In this document: piece by piece, positions 14,846 through 21,247 of the stretch
Position numbering within the stretch: the first letter of the stretch is position 1
Layout: each line of letters opens with the position of its first letter
Origin: a virus
Lineage: Duplodnaviria > Heunggongvirae > Uroviricota > Caudoviricetes
Length of the DNA stretch: 21,247 nucleotides
Direction: 5' to 3' (one strand)
Virus record (IMG/VR): IMGVR_UViG_2690316149_000020
Location: 1-21,247 of that record
Position numbers and translations under genes: made by a program
The notes under the pieces: generated by a model
What the model saw: the letters and a program-made list of their open reading frames with translations, nothing else
Database searches by the model: none
What the model was told of the DNA's origin: nothing

Positions 14846-15331
14846 TTATCTGATGTTACTGCTACTGTTGCATGTGACTGTATTTCCAAACCCTGAATTG
14901 CAGTTTGTGTAAGTGTCAACTCGTGTTGGATAGGGTTGAGTTATAACAGGCTGTCTCGCTTTTTGCTCGATCGCTTGCATTGTGTTTACAGCCTGATAAT
15001 TCAATAAAGCCTGCTGGAATGCTTGGCTTTGTGCTATTTGTTGGGCTTGTTCTTGGCTTTGTAATTGAACATAAAGATTCTGAAGCTCAAGTCTTGCCTG
15101 TGCGTCACTTATCTTGCCTTCATCGACACTTTGCCCGAGCATCTTTGCAGCAAGGACATACAGCTTAGGTGTTGGTGCTGATGCCATGCGTGAGTCGTTC
15201 TTCACGCTGGCATCAAGGCAATTAGCCATATCGCTAAGCTTTTGATAGCGTTGTTCGCAACTTGCTTGATAGTCACTTACTTTTGCGCACCCAACCAGCA
15301 GAAGCGGGATAATTAACAGTGATTTTTTCAT
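14846..15331 (-). CDS. predicted lipoprotein (161 aa), function unknown; candidate lysogeny-expressed exclusion or conversion factor
   Basis: Internal ATG at 15329-15331 (minus) is preceded by AAGGAG about 10 nt upstream. Signal peptide MKKSLLIIPLLLVGC has lipobox LVGC, and Ala at +2 predicts outer-membrane sorting. Gln-rich mature region with several Cys. The ORF-track start at 15367 lacks an RBS. Confidence 0.65.
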   Translation of the reverse strand: MKKSLLIIPLLLVGCAKVSDYQASCEQRYQKLSDMANCLDASVKNDSRMASAPTPKLYVLAAKMLGQSVDEGKISDAQARLELQNLYVQLQSQEQAQQIAQSQAFQQALLNYQAVNTMQAIEQKARQPVITQPYPTRVDTYTNCNSGFGNTVTCNSSSNIR

Positions 15332-15401
15332 ATGGTTAACTCTCCTTAGTTTTTCACAGGATATCATGAAGGCAATGCCATTTTAGCCGGAAACTAGATT
15401 T

Positions 15402-15668
15402 CTATGTTCCCTTTTTATTATTGCTATACATGGTCTTAAGCGTTTCAAAAACCATTTTCTTAACCATATCAGATTGTTGTTCTGCTATACGCTCTGCATC
15501 GTCAATGTAAACTGATGCAGAGCTTTGTTTAGCCAATGATTCTTCAATCGCTGCAATTATCTCTGAGTTCAGCGACCTGTTATTCATCTTCGCACGCTGC
15601 TTAATTTTCGCGTGGAGTTCATGCGGAAGTCTCAAGTGAAACTGCGCCTCGTCGTATTTGCTGTACAT
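15402..15668 (-). CDS. mnt: Mnt-like ribbon-helix-helix (Arc/MetJ family) repressor (88 aa)
   Basis: C-terminal segment DDAERIAEQQSDMVKKMVFETLKTMY closely resembles the P22 Mnt tetramerisation region. An RHH core (QFHLRLPHELHAKIKQRAKMNNRSLNSEIIAAIEESL) precedes it. Start taken at the internal ATG (15666-15668) to give an Mnt-like length. Confidence 0.8.
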   Translation of the reverse strand: MYSKYDEAQFHLRLPHELHAKIKQRAKMNNRSLNSEIIAAIEESLAKQSSASVYIDDAERIAEQQSDMVKKMVFETLKTMYSNNKKGT

Positions 15669-15741
15669 CCTTGATGCCTCACCAGTTGGGTGGAATGGCA
15701 TCGTAACTTACTGGATAAATACTCAATAGTACCATTTCGGT

Positions 15742-15764
15742 ATGCAATCACATCATGGTTGCAT
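15742..15764. promoter_or_regulatory. inverted repeat ATGCAA-N11-TTGCAT upstream of the mnt-like gene; candidate operator
   Basis: Perfect 6-bp arms at 15742-15747 and 15759-15764 inside the 131-bp gap between the HNH stop and the mnt start. Its role is not established. Confidence 0.25.
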
Positions 15765-15799
15765 CATATCATTCGTCTGGAGCAATGAAATGTCAGATA

Positions 15800-16339
15800 T
15801 CACCTACCATGATTCTCATGATAACCATAGGTCTTTTCAGCCTCACGCCTTACAGCAATTGCATCATCGAGACTCTTAAAGTATCCGAGATTAATGCGCT
15901 TCCCTGCGTCGCTAATATATGCCACCCACTTTTTATGGGTCTTATGCCATGAAACACCTGCGCACCCAGATGTATTGTTTGTGTATTTAGATTTGTTTTT
16001 TAGATTTTCACCGAGACTAACTAGACGCAGGTTGTCTATTGAATTATTTAACCCATTACCATCTTTATGGTCAATTTGCATTCCTGAAGGGATTTCACCA
16101 TAAAACATTTCCCATATTATCCTATGGGCGGCGTATATTTTATCTTGATACCTGATAATTATATAAGATGTTTTCCTGTTCTTGTCCTTGAATATATGTC
16201 CTGCAGGCTTTTCTTTAGATATATTGAACATTTTGGGTCTTGAAAGATATTGGTCACTCCAGTACAGGAGTCCATCGTCTTTTAATACGAATACTTCGTT
16301 CCAGTTCATGTTAACCACCTTTAAATAAAGTTCACTCAT
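15800..16339 (-). CDS. HNH homing-type endonuclease with C-terminal AP2 DNA-binding domain (179 aa; possibly 169 aa from the ATG at 16309)
   Basis: HNH_3 motif [28 protein letters not shown], followed by an AP2-like segment [45 protein letters not shown]. Visibly AT-rich. The alternative start at 16309 has an AAGGTGG Shine-Dalgarno 5 nt upstream. Confidence 0.8.
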
Positions 16340-16396
16340 TATACAAAAAACATGCTAGCAATGAATATTGCTTGCTTAACATATAGAGAAATTAAA

Positions 16397-18637
16397 ATGA
16401 CAGATTCAATAAATGCCAATGTTGTGGTAAGCATGCCTTCGCAACTCTTCACTATGGCTCGTTCTTTTAAAGCCGTAGCCAATGGAAAAATTTATATCGG
16501 TAAAATTGACACTGACCCGGTAAACCCTGAAAACCAGATTCAGGTTTATGTGGAGAACGAAGACGGCTCTCACGTTCCTGTTTCTCAACCAATAATCATT
16601 AACGCTGCTGGATATCCGGTATATAACGGACAGATTGCCAAATTCGTAACCGTGCAAGGCCATTCTATGGCTGTTTATGATGCGTATGGTGCGCAGCAGT
16701 TCTATTTTTCGAATGTGCTGAAGTATGACCCTGACCAACTCAGGCAAGATCTTGCATCTCAAGGAGGTGTTAATCTGGTAAACGGAGCTATCTCACAGGA
16801 AGATCTTGTTTTGCAGTCGATCACAAAAATTCCAAGTTATGATAATTCTAACGTAGTCCAGGCGTGGCGCGATAGTGTTGCGACCTACGGGTATGTTTAC
16901 TTCTCTAATCATTCAAAAAATCAGATGGTGTACACCGTACCGTCTACAGCTGCTAACGCTTCTTTCCTTGCGAACAGTAAAGTAATCATTGATAAAAATG
17001 TCACCCTGAGATTCGACAGTGATCTGTACTCACTGTTTAAATCGTTGCAGTACGAGGGGGAGGGTACGTTTGAATTTACGCACCTGAACTTTAAAGCAAC
17101 CGGTGGAGAAGTGGATTATCTGGCTAAGCAGGCCATCCTCAACCGAAACCCTATTCGCATGAAGCGAGTGGAATGGTCAGATTGTAAAGTTTATTCCATA
17201 AATGGTGACACGTTCTTCTATGAAGGTGAAGTCACCATATCCTCAGATAGCGCAGCTATCTTCCCCTTAACTACTGACCGTACAACAGGCCTGTTCGCAC
17301 CAATAGATATTGGAGAGCATATTTCTGCACATATTCGTATGGAATCTCAGGCCGCCTCAGAAGTTGGGATTGTTCTGCGATGCTCTGGTGGTTGGATGAT
17401 GTTCTATGGGGCACCAGGTGCTACACAGTGGTCTTATAGACAGAAACCAATTGGTGGTCCAGTAGCAGAAGGAACTCCATTCCCGCTGCCAGGAGGTTTA
17501 CTGTCGTACGCCCCGGGCAAAGCAACCGTTGGCGTATCACTGCAAGGTAAAAACTGGGCGCAGATAACGATGAATGGCGTTGGGATACGTTTGCCCTTTG
17601 ATACTGCTGATGTAGGGGATGTATACGAAGTTGGGTTTGTTGCACTGACCACGGCATCTGGAGGTTCTGCGCGTGTAACTGGATTATGCAGCTACACCTC
17701 TGATAATGGCGTGCACGGTAAGCCTCCACTTAATATCCTTATCCACGGTGATAGTACAGCTGAGGATTTCATTTCCGCGTTCAGCTCGTACATTCCGCAA
17801 TTAATGGATGGAGCGAACGGCCACCGTTCACATAGCATTGTAAACAAGGCAGTTGCCGGACAGACAATGAGGCAACAGTTAGATCTCCTGAAGGCTCAGG
17901 GGCCGGGTGATGCTTACATCGTTATTATGGTTGCCGGAACTAACGAAGGGCAGGCAAACCAAAACGGCGATTATATGGCGTCATTGATAGATGAGTTTGT
18001 CTTATATTGCAATGGCCTTGGTCGTATCCCTGTTTGGGTTGAGCCGTGGATGTGGTATAGCCAGTCATTTATTGGAGGGGCTGGCCAGCCATCTTCTAAC
18101 TACGACGGTGTCGCAGAGTTGCGAGAAGCTGGTAAACGCCAGATGATGAAATATGGCAATAACGTCATTTGTGTAACAACAACTCACCAGCTCCCGGCCC
18201 CATATCCAGAGTATTTCAACACGCAATACGACCCACTTCTGCGTGATGACATTCACCAAAGCCAGTTAGGGTATCGTCTGTATGCGGAAATTATCTGCTC
18301 TGCCATTATCGACTGGTGGTCGCGTGTTGATTACACGCCAAGAGCAGCTGTTCAATGGTGGGCTGGAACAAACGTAACAGTACAGGCACCGTCAAGTTTA
18401 ACTGCCAATTCAATTAATATTAAACTGGCAGCCACTTCATTTGCGAATGGCAATACTGTTCTAACGCTTCCGAGGTGGTGCAGACCAAAAGTAACCAAAA
18501 ATGTCCCTGTACCGTTCACTGCTGATGGCGTTTCATTTGGCATGGCAATGGCCACCATTAATGCTTCAACAGGACAAATATCGATTGAAGGGTCCACCAC
18601 TACATCTCCAACGTTCTACATAGATGCGACATGGTAG
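16397..18637 (+). CDS. tailspike: P22 gp9-type head-binding N-terminal domain fused to a distal region with an SGNH/GDSL hydrolase (esterase) domain (746 aa)
   Basis: Start at the ATG giving [18 protein letters not shown]...[26 protein letters not shown]...VLKYDPDQ, the conserved P22 gp9 N-terminus. The ORF-track start at 16352 adds 15 non-homologous residues. SGNH blocks in order: [27 protein letters not shown]. Confidence 0.85.
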
Positions 18638-18643
18638 TAAAAA

Positions 18644-18666
18644 CATGGAGGCAATACGCCTCCATG
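18644..18666 (+). terminator. stem-loop after the tailspike gene; candidate late-operon terminator
   Basis: Perfect inverted repeat CATGGAGGC-AATAC-GCCTCCATG (9-bp stem, 5-nt loop) starting 7 bp after the tailspike stop. The downstream sequence is not T-rich, so intrinsic termination efficiency is uncertain. Confidence 0.5.
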
Positions 18667-18845
18667 CTAATAACTCAAATGCTCTTAAAATACTCTTAAG
18701 GAGATGATCAGCGCTTTTATTAACATCAACCATCTATGTGCGTTATAGGTTAATTATCTCCATGTGATGGCAGACAAAACTGAGACACACAAAGCTTTGC
18801 ACTGGATTGCAAGGCTTTGTGCTCTTAGATAGTAGTTAAGGTGGA

Positions 18846-20003
18846 TCACTCCACCTTCCCATCAAGCCATTCCGCCCACCACTGCATCATTTCTCTGCGC
18901 TTATCTAGATACTGAGCATGGTTGTAAATCCCGCGCACAGATCCGCCGTTGGCATGTGCAAGTTGCACTTCAATAGCGTCAGCAGGCCATTCGTGCTCGT
19001 TCATAATCGTGCTGAATTCATGCCTGAATCCGTGACCGCTTTCCAGACCCTCATAGCCGATTTGTTTAATCACAAGTAGCACCGCGTTCTCGCAGATTGG
19101 CTTCTTCTTATCGTTGCGTCCGGCAAAAACAAACTCTGATACTGGCTTGGTGATTGAGCTTAGCGTAGTAAGAAGTTCAACCACCTGGTCTGACATCGGG
19201 ACCACATGAATTTTTCGACCCTTCATCACACTGGCGTCGATGGTGATAATCCTGTTTTCAAAATCGACGTTCTTCCATAGCATGGAACGAAGTTCTTTCG
19301 TTCTTAGGGCGGTGTAGCGTAAAACTTTAGTCGCAATAAGCGATACGATACTTCCTGAAAATGTTGCCAGTGCTTTGTTGAATGCCGGGATCTGGTCTGC
19401 AGGAAGAAACGGGAAGTTCTTCTTGCGGTATCCTTTCATGGCGTCTGCAAGGTCAGGTGCCGGGTTATATTTAGCCCTTCCGGTGACAATAGCGTAACGG
19501 AAAACCTCGCCGCATCTTCTGCGTGCTTTGTTGGCTCGCTCCATTGCACCGCGATCTTCAAATCTGCGGATTACTTCCAGCAGTTGCATCGGCTCAATAT
19601 CCTGAATCTCAAGACCGCCGATGATGGGTAAAATGTCGTCATCAAACATTTTTGCAAGTTCAGTCGCATACCCTACTGACCAGACTTGCTTCTTGTGCTC
19701 GTACCATTCCTTGTAAATCGCACTAAATGAATTGTTGTTAGACGAAGCCTTTTTCGCCTTTACCGGATCGATGCCAACCGAGATGTCTTTCCTCGCGGTC
19801 CATGCTTTATCCCTTGCTTCCTGCAAAGTCATAAGCGGATATTTTCCGACGGTCAGGATTTTCTCCTTACCGTCAATCTTGTAGCGAAGCTGCCATACCT
19901 TTTTCCCGGATACAGGGACATAAAGGTACAGGCCATTACCATCGAGAAGGCGGTATGGTTTTTCTTTCGGCTTTGCTGCTTCAATCTGCTTAACGGTGAG
20001 CAT
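18846..20003 (-). CDS. intS: tyrosine recombinase / phage integrase, IntS-like (385 aa from the ATG; the ORF-track GTG start at 20039 would give 397 aa)
   Basis: Sits directly beside the 3' end of argW and is transcribed away from it. C-terminal catalytic-domain residues are visible (...HGFRHEF...HANGGSVRGIYNH...). Sequence and context match the recalled argW-associated IntS family. Confidence 0.85.
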   Translation of the reverse strand: MLTVKQIEAAKPKEKPYRLLDGNGLYLYVPVSGKKVWQLRYKIDGKEKILTVGKYPLMTLQEARDKAWTARKDISVGIDPVKAKKASSNNNSFSAIYKEWYEHKKQVWSVGYATELAKMFDDDILPIIGGLEIQDIEPMQLLEVIRRFEDRGAMERANKARRRCGEVFRYAIVTGRAKYNPAPDLADAMKGYRKKNFPFLPADQIPAFNKALATFSGSIVSLIATKVLRYTALRTKELRSMLWKNVDFENRIITIDASVMKGRKIHVVPMSDQVVELLTTLSSITKPVSEFVFAGRNDKKKPICENAVLLVIKQIGYEGLESGHGFRHEFSTIMNEHEWPADAIEVQLAHANGGSVRGIYNHAQYLDKRREMMQWWAEWLDGKVE

Positions 20004-20080
20004 GGGTAAAAATCCGGTGGGTAAAATTATTTTATCCACTTTTTACCCGTCATGGTGTGCGGCTGTCAACGATCTGACGC

Positions 20081-20100
20081 GAACCATGACGAACCGTGAA
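20081..20100. repeat. tandem 10-bp direct repeat GAACCATGAC / GAACCGTGAA in the int-argW spacer; candidate integrase arm-type sites
   Basis: Two adjacent copies with 2 mismatches. An inverted copy (CCGTCATGG, 20047-20055) lies about 30 bp away. Located between the integrase start and the tRNA 3' end, where the att arm is expected. Confidence 0.3.
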
Positions 20101-20164
20101 TCTACGTAAGGCTTGATATTCAGGGGATTTTGCGGACTGCTACGGATGGGAGCGAACTGATAAA

Positions 20165-20239
20165 TGGTGTCCCCTGCAGGAATCGAACCTGCAATTAGCC
20201 CTTAGGAGGGGCTCGTTATATCCATTTAACTAAGAGGAC
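20165..20239 (-). tRNA. argW: tRNA-Arg (anticodon CCU), argW; prophage attachment target
   Basis: The reverse complement reads GTCCTCTTAGTTAAATGGATATAACGAGCCCCTCCTAAGGGCTAATTGCAGGTTCGATTCCTGCAGGGGACACCA. It has a 7-bp acceptor stem, anticodon loop CTCCTAA with CCT, a T-arm GGTTCGATTCC and a 3' CCA. 75 nt. Confidence 0.9.
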
Positions 20240-20314
20240 AATGCGGCATGAGTATACCCGCTAATGGACTGCGGGGTAAGTACGCTGCCGCTCGATTGCT
20301 TAAACCCTCGCCAT

Positions 20315-21247
20315 TTATGCTGGGTTTTTATCATTTTTCTTAATGTTTTCCGCACGTTCTGCTTTTTGGCGTGCTTCTGCTTTACGCTTGTTGCTCATGT
20401 CGTTACGAATCTGTGCATGACTCATTAACGCGAAGATAAAGGTGCCGCCGCAGATGTTCCCCGCTAAAGTAGGTAGTGCGAAGGGCCAGATGAAATCGCT
20501 CCAGTGCAGCGTGCCGTTAAACACCAGATAGAGGATTTCAACAGAACCGACAACGATGTGGGTGGTGTCACCCAGTGCAATAAGCCAGGTCATCAATATA
20601 ATCACCACAATCTTTGCCGCACCCGCAGCAGGAAACATCCAAACCATAGTGGCGATCAGCCAGCCGGAAATGATCGCGTTGGCAAACATCTCGCTGGGGG
20701 TGTTCTTCATCACATCCATGCCGATTTTGACAAATGCATCGCGAGTTTCTTCATTGAAGATAGGCATATATTCAAATGCCCATGCAGCAATACCTGTCCC
20801 GAGAATATTACCCAGCAGCACGACGCCCCATAATCGCATAAGTAAGCCGACGTTGCTCATTGTCGGTTTTTGCATGACGGGTAGTACCGCAGTCACGGTG
20901 TTTTCGGTAAATAATTGCTGGCGGGCCATAATGACGATAATAAAACCAAAGGTATAACCGAGATTCTCCAGTAAGAAGCTGCCTGGCACTCCTTCCAGTT
21001 CGACATGAAATATCCCTTTTGCCAGTAGCGAAGCGCCCATCGACAGACCCGCCGCAATGGCTGACCACAGTAGCGCCATTGCGTCGCGTTCCAGCTCTTT
21101 TTCACCATCCTGGCGGATATGCTCATGAATTGCCATCGCCCGGGAGGGGAGTCGGTCTTCATCTATTTCTATTTTTTTGCCGCGCTCTTTTTCTTCGCTC
21201 TCAACTTCAATTTCGTCGCTGTGTTGATCAATTTTGTCGTTGTCCAT
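20315..21247 (-). CDS. yfdC: inner-membrane protein of the formate/nitrite transporter (FNT) family, YfdC-like (310 aa); host gene flanking the prophage
   Basis: Full-length ORF whose start codon is the last triplet of the window. Acidic N-terminal tail followed by multiple hydrophobic helices. It is the expected host neighbour of argW in enterobacterial genomes. Confidence 0.8.
   Translation of the reverse strand: MDNDKIDQHSDEIEVESEEKERGKKIEIDEDRLPSRAMAIHEHIRQDGEKELERDAMALLWSAIAAGLSMGASLLAKGIFHVELEGVPGSFLLENLGYTFGFIIVIMARQQLFTENTVTAVLPVMQKPTMSNVGLLMRLWGVVLLGNILGTGIAAWAFEYMPIFNEETRDAFVKIGMDVMKNTPSEMFANAIISGWLIATMVWMFPAAGAAKIVVIILMTWLIALGDTTHIVVGSVEILYLVFNGTLHWSDFIWPFALPTLAGNICGGTFIFALMSHAQIRNDMSNKRKAEARQKAERAENIKKNDKNPA

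Follow-up and report, generated by a model that had tools for sequence, protein, structure and literature searches.

A Mnt homologue with a changed DNA-reading strand beside the tailspike gene of a P22-like prophage, and its predicted operator

In phage P22, Mnt is the lysogen-expressed repressor of ant, and bound Mnt favours Pmnt. The half-sites of Mnt and Arc follow a geometry of 10-11 bp, and the specificity residues of P22 Mnt are reportedly His6, Asn8 and Arg10, a result ascribed to Knight and Sauer. The site AGGTCCACGGTGGACCT, a perfect 8-1-8 palindrome at 337-353 of X01916, is the Mnt operator, Omnt. Besides mnt and this symmetric site, P22 carries arc, ant, the Arc operator and a strong Pant (TTGACA-17-TATATT), and its Pmnt is annotated as TTGAGA-17-TATCAT.

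Phages with mnt and without arc and ant have been published, namely ST64T, ST104, Para1 and L (PMC2629481, PMC8022706), and the mnt slot was named the "ant moron" by Villafane et al. 2008 (PMC2629481), who had also raised for P22 the idea that bound Mnt would lie across rightward transcription toward the tailspike. Whether the mnt gene of phage L, which stands without arc/ant, is a remnant or has acquired a new role was left open (Zaworski 2020, PMC8022706).

The mnt gene, its family and its neighbours

The window, by which we mean the whole stretch of 21,247 nucleotides that was analysed, covers the late half of a prophage of the P22-like (Lederbergvirus) type that is integrated at argW in E. 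coli. Its genes run from gp3, terminase and portal to gp7, a gp20-like gene and a gp16-like SLT gene, followed by a lipoprotein-like gene, mnt and an HNH gene, all three on the minus strand, and by the tailspike gene on the plus strand. The position of mnt, after the gp16-like injection gene and before the tailspike and in the orientation opposite to the late genes, is thus the slot of mnt in P22. In the last part of the window (18638-21247), a tyrosine integrase gene (18846-20039, minus strand) follows the tailspike directly and precedes tRNA-Arg(CCT) (20165-20239, minus strand) and a host gene of the formate/nitrite-transporter family; the stretch from tailspike to integrase holds no O-antigen conversion (gtr) genes, and this arrangement marks the prophage end at argW.

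The mnt-like gene occupies 15402-15668 on the minus strand and encodes 88 amino acids, with a ribbon-helix-helix (RHH) N-terminal domain and a C-terminal tetramerisation helix of the Mnt type. The product begins MYSKYDEAQFHLRLP (in a longer excerpt, MYSKYDEAQFHLRLPHELHAKIKQRAKMNNRS). A GAGG Shine-Dalgarno sequence stands 8 nt before the ATG, and RefSeq uses the same start at 15668 (WP_088845962) in an E. coli locus of 98.5% identity; the longer reading from 15701, an ORF of 99 aa, has no Shine-Dalgarno sequence. Pfam returned Arc (PF03869, 1.2e-14, over residues 18-60 of the 99-aa ORF) and Repressor_Mnt (PF11423, 2.5e-11), and a search of the PDB returned 1MNT, which is P22 Mnt 1-76, at 5.9e-19 with residues 6-78 aligned, the Mnt tetramerisation domain 1QEY at 1.2e-6 and Arc 1ARQ at 1e-3. 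Residues 1-46 are 39% identical to P22 Mnt, and residues 55-81 are 63% identical. The initial annotation had described a C-terminal half close to that of P22 Mnt and a divergent DNA-reading strand, and both descriptions agree with these comparisons; the P22 strand that it had quoted is correct by alignment, which gives QFHLRLP here and HFNFRMP in P22. Gln9, His11 and Arg13 of the window protein align with the P22 specificity residues His6/Asn8/Arg10 and do not match them as a set.

With an Arc-like RHH domain, a C-terminal helix and a P22-like gene slot, the product of 15402-15668 is, as judged from its sequence, a true Mnt homologue, and its Gln/His/Arg strand is by alignment a different specificity class of the same family. 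By analogy with P22 Mnt, we expect the protein to be a tetramer of two RHH dimers. It shares with P22 Mnt the two-domain build, the slot, the orientation, the tetramerisation helix, the Arg of the strand and, as predicted, a 17-bp dyad-type site 1 nt from the candidate -35 of its own promoter; it differs in the other strand residues (His/Asn/Arg in P22) and in the N-terminal arm. P22 Arc has the same RHH fold, with reading residues that are also numbered 9, 11 and 13, but it is only 53 aa long, lacks the C-terminal tetramerisation helix and has another operator and another role, and the ORF scores far better against Mnt.

Two other names for this protein were considered and set aside. The label "partition protein ATPase" (phrog_795 and several RefSeq phage records) has no match to an ATPase family in this 88-aa RHH protein; it is carried by the Mnt homologues of 83-97 aa in the RefSeq records of Sf101, ST64T, SE1, ST160 and epsilon34, where the name is equally unsupported, and it appears to be an annotation error copied between records. 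Weak matches to HicB and FitA, which would point to a toxin-antitoxin antitoxin, reflect only the common fold. We also observed that Mnt proteins are domain mosaics. VSe13 (L001) and JEP4 (L006) combine the N-domain of the window with an unrelated-looking C-terminal part (…EERLASLISEQVKEVAADILRKEKTRS), which fits two separately functioning domains, and Gally Mnt joins an L-type N-domain to a P22-like C-terminus.

Neither arc nor ant is present among the ORFs of the window (ORF list, Pfam, PHROG), as the initial annotation had stated; the complete immI set of mnt-arc-ant-sar is therefore lacking its arc and ant under Pant, and the strong P22 Pant and the Arc operator are gone at this locus as well. 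No arc or ant gene lies adjacent to mnt in any of 81 loci of the QFHLRL type, and arc is absent from all 146 Q-class loci (81 QFHLRL and 65 QFNLRL). As for an ant gene elsewhere in the prophage, a related whole prophage (E. coli M160133) holds only a KilAC antirepressor gene in its nin region, with no Mnt operator near it, a result that is no more than indicative since this prophage is not identical to that of the window. The initial annotation had presented the orphan state as unusual, and this view does not hold: the arrangement is among those already published, and the mnt allele with its intergenic DNA is matched in 345 of 5426 complete E. coli genomes. In the records of L, Gally, JEP4, VSe13, Sf101, S9-5, ST160 and Brookers, mnt lies directly beside the tailspike, and of the three beta-strand classes described below, two have an orphan mnt as a rule. 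What is new at the locus is the specificity class; the repressor and its arrangement are both known, and in other respects the locus shows the usual mosaic variation of a phage module that has been well studied. As in the Mnt-only ant morons of ST64T, ST104 and L, mnt stands alone, divergent from and beside the tailspike, with a dyad-type site at the Omnt position; the DNA between operator and tailspike is, however, unlike that of the L type, and in the window the junction is interrupted by an HNH cassette and mnt is followed by a lipoprotein gene.

The tailspike gene (16397-18637, plus strand) encodes a P22 head-binding domain at its N-terminus (Pfam Head_binding, 2.6e-65), and its start at 16397 is the equivalent of the one that RefSeq gives for locus L003. 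The C-terminal part has a weak match to GDSL/SGNH hydrolases (E 0.0014, below the Pfam cut-off), which hints at a receptor-binding domain of the esterase type (deacetylase) rather than an endorhamnosidase. Among the genomes of IMG/VR and GTDB, 81 related loci all have a tailspike as the gene next to mnt, and in 60 of the 81 its start lies 124 nt from the mnt start, an offset counted from the C of the complement of the mnt start codon. The conserved neighbour of mnt is the start of the tailspike gene. On the other side lies the lipoprotein-like gene (14846-15334, minus strand; product MKKSLLIIPLLLVGC...; phrog_6067, function unknown), whose start at 15334 is 67 nt past the mnt stop codon on the same strand. 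It has its own Shine-Dalgarno sequence, no terminator-like site was seen between the two genes, and it is probably co-transcribed with mnt. What follows mnt varies: there is no such gene in Sf101, while L and Gally have convergent genes and JEP4 has others. The lipoprotein gene is thus a variable moron and no conserved partner of mnt, which speaks against the suggestion of the initial annotation that it might be the target of the repressor.

The predicted operator and the reading strand

An alignment of the sequences that precede mnt in P22, L, Gally, Sf101, VSe13, JEP4 and the window showed a common CAAT block, which is the reverse complement of the -35 annotated for P22 Pmnt, and directly after it a 17-bp dyad-type site. 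In P22 this site is the palindrome given above; its counterpart is AAGACCACCGTGGTCTT in phage L, CGTACCATTTAGGTATG in VSe13 and CGTACCGTTTCGGTATG in JEP4, and the site of Sf101 is identical to that of the window, AGTACCATTTCGGTATG. The predicted operator of the window occupies 15728-15744 (no strand assigned), with half-site cores TACC at 15730-15733 and GGTA at 15739-15742 around a centre at T15736 (TACC-N5-GGTA at 15730-15742). It begins 1 nt past the CTCAAT/-35 block, and the distance from the mnt ATG to the centre of the site is 68 nt, against 66 nt in P22.

The sequence of the half-site follows that of the beta-strand. Mnt proteins with HFNFRM pair with AGGTCCAC-N-GTGGACC in 11 IMG/VR loci and in P22, epsilon34 and phage 25, always beside arc. 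Those with QFNLRL pair with AAGACCAC-N-GTGGTC in 65 IMG/VR loci and in L, S9-5, ST160 and Gally, where arc is never adjacent; the central base of this site varies freely, and Brookers, which has the QFNLRL strand, fits the class site in its left half. QFHLRL pairs with GTACC-R-TTT-Y-GGTA in 81 loci and in Sf101, VSe13 and JEP4, and all the QFHLRL loci keep nRTACC-R-TTT-Y-GGTAYn, including the relatives in Buttiauxella (AGTACCATTTTGGTACG) and Serratia (AGTACCGTTTAGGTATG), in which the flanks are different. Across about 170 fetched loci we found no exception to the pairing of HFNFRM with GGTCCAC, QFNLRL with AGACCAC and QFHLRL with GTACC. None of the three classes departs from the Arg of the strand or from the CC/GG pairs, and where residues vary, the bases vary along with them. 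It is chiefly this comparative evidence, the tracking of the reading strand by the half-site, that points to 15728-15744 as the operator. Set against P22, the half-site is GTACC instead of GGTCC with the CC/GG pairs retained; set against the L type, QFHLRL with GTACC-N5-GGTAT replaces QFNLRL with AAGACCAC-N-GTGGTCTT. From the changed strand and the half-site that covaries with it, the Mnt of the window very probably reads an operator other than P22 Omnt, as the initial annotation had anticipated. The three natural pairs of strand and half-site also amount to a small data set on how an RHH sheet reads DNA.

We stress that the fit to a two-fold symmetric operator is imperfect. The predicted site has the homologous position beside the -35 and a conserved TACC-N5-GGTA, but it is self-complementary at only 8 of its 17 positions and far less symmetric than the sites of P22 and L. 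The right half-site has undergone a one-sided change in six related loci and is different in two more as well, and the central TTT of the QFHLRL site is both invariant and asymmetric, which a symmetric tetramer leaves unaccounted for.

A search of the window and of the related whole prophage for operator half-sites, which the initial annotation had proposed for the rest of the prophage, recovered the single mnt-linked site and no further copies; one core-only match inside the capsid region is taken as chance. Scanning IMG/VR for AGTACCNTTTNGGTAT in other contexts, such as upstream of ant, gave, among the matches listed, only copies linked to mnt and random matches in unrelated viruses.

The initial annotation had drawn attention to an inverted repeat, ATGCAA-N11-TTGCAT, and it is indeed present at 15742-15764; in its longer form it reads ATGCAATCA-CATCA-TGGTTGCAT on the plus strand, with 9-nt arms that are complementary at 8 of 9 positions and a 5-nt loop. 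That Mnt binds this palindrome, ATGCAATCA-N5-TGGTTGCAT, might be argued from its near-perfect arms, its location between mnt and the ancestral tailspike start, its conservation in the Sf101-type intergenic region and variants that repair the single mismatch in both directions. Yet the repeat is present only in intergenic DNA of the Sf101 type: VSe13, JEP4 and loci L009, L011, L057, L060 and L092, which share the QFHLRL strand and have an almost identical N-domain, carry other sequence there, and neither P22 nor L has a counterpart at this position. Its TGCA centres are 17 bp apart and not 10-11 bp. The conserved TACC-N5-GGTA core overlaps the repeat by one base and the full 17-bp site does so by 3 bp. 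When the 121-nt intergenic region was shuffled by mononucleotide, a perfect repeat with 6-nt arms arose in 262 of 1000 shuffles and one with 9-nt arms and at most one mismatch in 112 of 1000, and a repeat found in 11-26% of shuffles carries no weight by itself. The substitutions fit an RNA hairpin better, with U.G tolerated on the plus strand only: C-to-T changes in the 5' arm keep U.G, the T.G position becomes C-G or T-A depending on the locus, and a double change in L008 turns G-C into T-A. Folding energies are -9.0 kcal/mol (z -2.9) on the plus strand and -6.6 on the minus strand; 95.7% of cells pair, with one pair showing a two-sided change, a level reached by 16 of 500 shuffles. The repeat is probably a hairpin in plus-strand RNA, in the 5' leader of the ancestral tailspike message, for which the evidence is suggestive only. 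We regard it as very improbable that Mnt binds the palindrome; its operator is likely AGTACCATTTCGGTATG and not ATGCAA-N11-TTGCAT.

Two further observations concern related strands and sites. The L-type Mnt strand PQFNLRL (L, Gally, L222-L286) is nearly the PQFNLRW of Arc, and there is a likeness between the L-type half-site AAGAC and the TAGA(A/G) boxes in the Arc operator of P22 (ATGATAGAAGCACTCTACTAT, L004 308-328), hinting that an AGA core is what Q-N-R reads in both. CUS-3 (L094) carries two tandem mnt-like genes at 1211-1740; the upstream one, with a PQVNLRLP strand, is preceded by a direct repeat of TGCGTACC and not by a dyad site, and the downstream one is of the P22 type and has no operator of its own.

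Promoters, target and alternative readings

A candidate Pmnt lies at 15700-15726 on the minus strand, with a -35 of TTGAGT (15726 to 15721), a -10 of TACGAT (15705 to 15700) and a 15-bp spacer, and is the positional homologue of the P22 promoter. Its TTG and TACGAT are kept in all QFHLRL loci, with a spacer of 17 bp in VSe13 and JEP4 and of 15 bp in the window and the Sf101 subgroup. A candidate rightward promoter, ATGGCA-17-AATACT, occupies 15695-15723 on the plus strand at the position of P22 Pant; its transcription start would fall in the operator, and its -35 overlaps the Pmnt -10 by 1 nt, as in the P22 geometry. Both candidates are weak (8 of 12 consensus matches), and consensus promoter scans found no strong promoter in either direction. 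The best match of these scans, CTGACA-17-AATGAT on the minus strand (15796-15768), overlies the ancestral start of the tailspike gene and might serve mnt as another promoter. The rightward candidate is not conserved in VSe13-type loci, so that there may be no rightward promoter to repress.

The mnt Shine-Dalgarno sequence and the candidate Pmnt -10 are both covered by a second inverted repeat (15673-15702), GATGCC-N18-GGCATC, whose inner stem is CACC/GGTG and which folds at -14.9 kcal/mol (z -2.3) on the plus strand. All Mnt-only classes retain it, with an outer stem of TTTGT/ACAAA in Brookers and an inner stem of GTCC/GGAC in L009; a consensus fold recovered only a weak inner stem, from an alignment that misplaced Brookers and P22.

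On balance we favour the reading that the Mnt of the window is a functional repressor left from a P22-type immI (the ant moron) after the loss of arc and ant, and that it acts as a tetramer on AGTACCATTTCGGTATG to regulate itself and rightward transcription to the tailspike. Each sheet (Gln9, His11, Arg13) of its two RHH dimers would enter the major groove of one half-site, and the site would be a version of P22 Omnt (AGGTCCACGGTGGACCT) with changed specificity. Since the site is 1 nt upstream of the -35 of the putative leftward mnt promoter, bound Mnt would set its own expression and with it that of the lipoprotein; in the lysogen it would also block rightward transcription toward the tailspike, whether from a weak promoter at the Pant position or from late read-through. 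In the window such transcription would first cross a remnant of five tailspike codons and then run antisense through the HNH gene. We place the target in the intergenic region because the tailspike start is the constant neighbour and because the operator occurs once, both in the window and in the related whole prophage; from this we infer that Mnt acts on itself and on transcription toward the tailspike. Autoregulation, which the initial annotation had listed among the options, is plausible, and a repressor of itself only has no obvious benefit. A wider claim would be that Mnt-only modules are a conserved lysogen-expressed switch on the tailspike, found in some 150 P22-like prophages of two classes with the operator 120-150 bp from the tailspike start; this is possible, but we hold it only tentatively. 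If it were true, Mnt would gate transcription into the last late gene, from a promoter derived from Pant or from late read-through, and the classes would provide a recognition table of three entries, H-N-R with GGTCC, Q-N-R with AGACC and Q-H-R with GTACC.

It has been raised as an option for phage L that mnt is a decaying, functionless leftover of immI (PMC8022706), and the same could be said here given that the classical targets arc and ant are gone, the promoters look weak and some relatives have one-sided changes in the operator. The coding sequence argues against it. Over codons 1-46, a comparison of the window with VSe13 gives differences at 18 of some 27 synonymous sites, which are thus near saturation, and at 9 of some 111 non-synonymous sites (dS about 1.7, dN 0.086, dN/dS about 0.05), and other pairs give dN/dS of 0.01-0.12. 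Judged by these ratios, mnt is under strong purifying selection in its DNA-binding domain and is unlikely to be a decaying remnant. The ORF is intact in 81 of 81 motif-bearing loci, which comprise 31 protein variants, the module is kept in several genera, and the operator co-evolves with the strand in three classes. The remnant explanation is accordingly the one to which we give least credence. Selection, a co-evolving operator and a constant tailspike neighbour together argue for a role and name the 17-bp site at which it would be exerted.

Two alternatives accept a functional Mnt and place its use elsewhere. The repressor might be retained to act in trans on the ant promoter of superinfecting P22-like phages, thereby shielding the prophage from foreign Ant; repression of ant is what Mnt does in P22, and such protection would be a selective reason for keeping mnt without ant. 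No locus, however, pairs this operator class with arc/ant, all 146 Q-class loci being without arc; the ant-linked loci found all have the P22-type operator, which the Mnt of the window should not read, and the IMG/VR scan returned, among its listed matches, no such context. We consider this explanation quite unlikely. Mnt might instead be mainly the autoregulated driver of a lysogenic-conversion operon of mnt and the lipoprotein gene, with the tailspike not a target. The close spacing of the two genes on one strand, with no terminator-like site between them, and the preference of P22-bound Mnt for Pmnt would agree with such an operon; the lack of conservation of the gene downstream of mnt (Sf101, L, Gally, JEP4) and the constancy of the tailspike start as neighbour make it unlikely, if less so than action in trans. 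Regulation of mnt itself together with transcription toward the tailspike remains the reading that we prefer.

The HNH cassette and the tailspike start

The HNH gene (15800-16339, minus strand; start at 16309 according to RefSeq) encodes an endonuclease with HNH_3 (2.3e-20) and AP2 (1.2e-4) domains and belongs to phrog_99. The remnant of the ancestral tailspike start occupies 15779-15804 on the plus strand, with a GGAG ribosome-binding site and ATG TCA GAT ATC ACC at 15790-15804. This remnant is identical to the tailspike start of Sf101, and homology to Sf101 halts after codon 5 (ATGTCAGATATCACC, 15790-15804), at the junction also seen in L053 and L068. There follow about 590 bp with the HNH gene on the other strand and then a fresh tailspike start, ATGACAGATTCA, at 16397; the cassette, at approximately 15805-16396, thus also supplies the new 5' end of the tailspike gene. 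The stop codon of the HNH gene reuses the complement of tailspike codons 4-5, and the old ribosome-binding site and five codons now open a dead-end frame of 29 codons.

Only a minority have the cassette, namely 15 of the 236 E. coli genomes with this intergenic DNA and 2 of 81 IMG/VR loci, so the HNH gene is a late arrival and no conserved target of Mnt; the proposal in the initial annotation that it might be one finds no support here.

Sequence with the potential to form hairpins recurs near tailspike starts. A palindrome, AGCAAT-GAAT-ATTGCT, lies at 16357-16372, 25 nt upstream of the new tailspike start, and in other classes a hairpin-forming sequence stands at a distance from the tailspike start similar to that of 15742-15764 here (CCGTAGCCACGCTGCGG in L, JEP4 and VSe13). 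L038 and L064 have a different ORF, of 166 aa, at the same ATCACC-TAC junction, which we take from its sequence to be another HNH_3 protein; with two HNH-like cassettes at one junction, the 5' end of the tailspike gene looks like a recurrent homing site.
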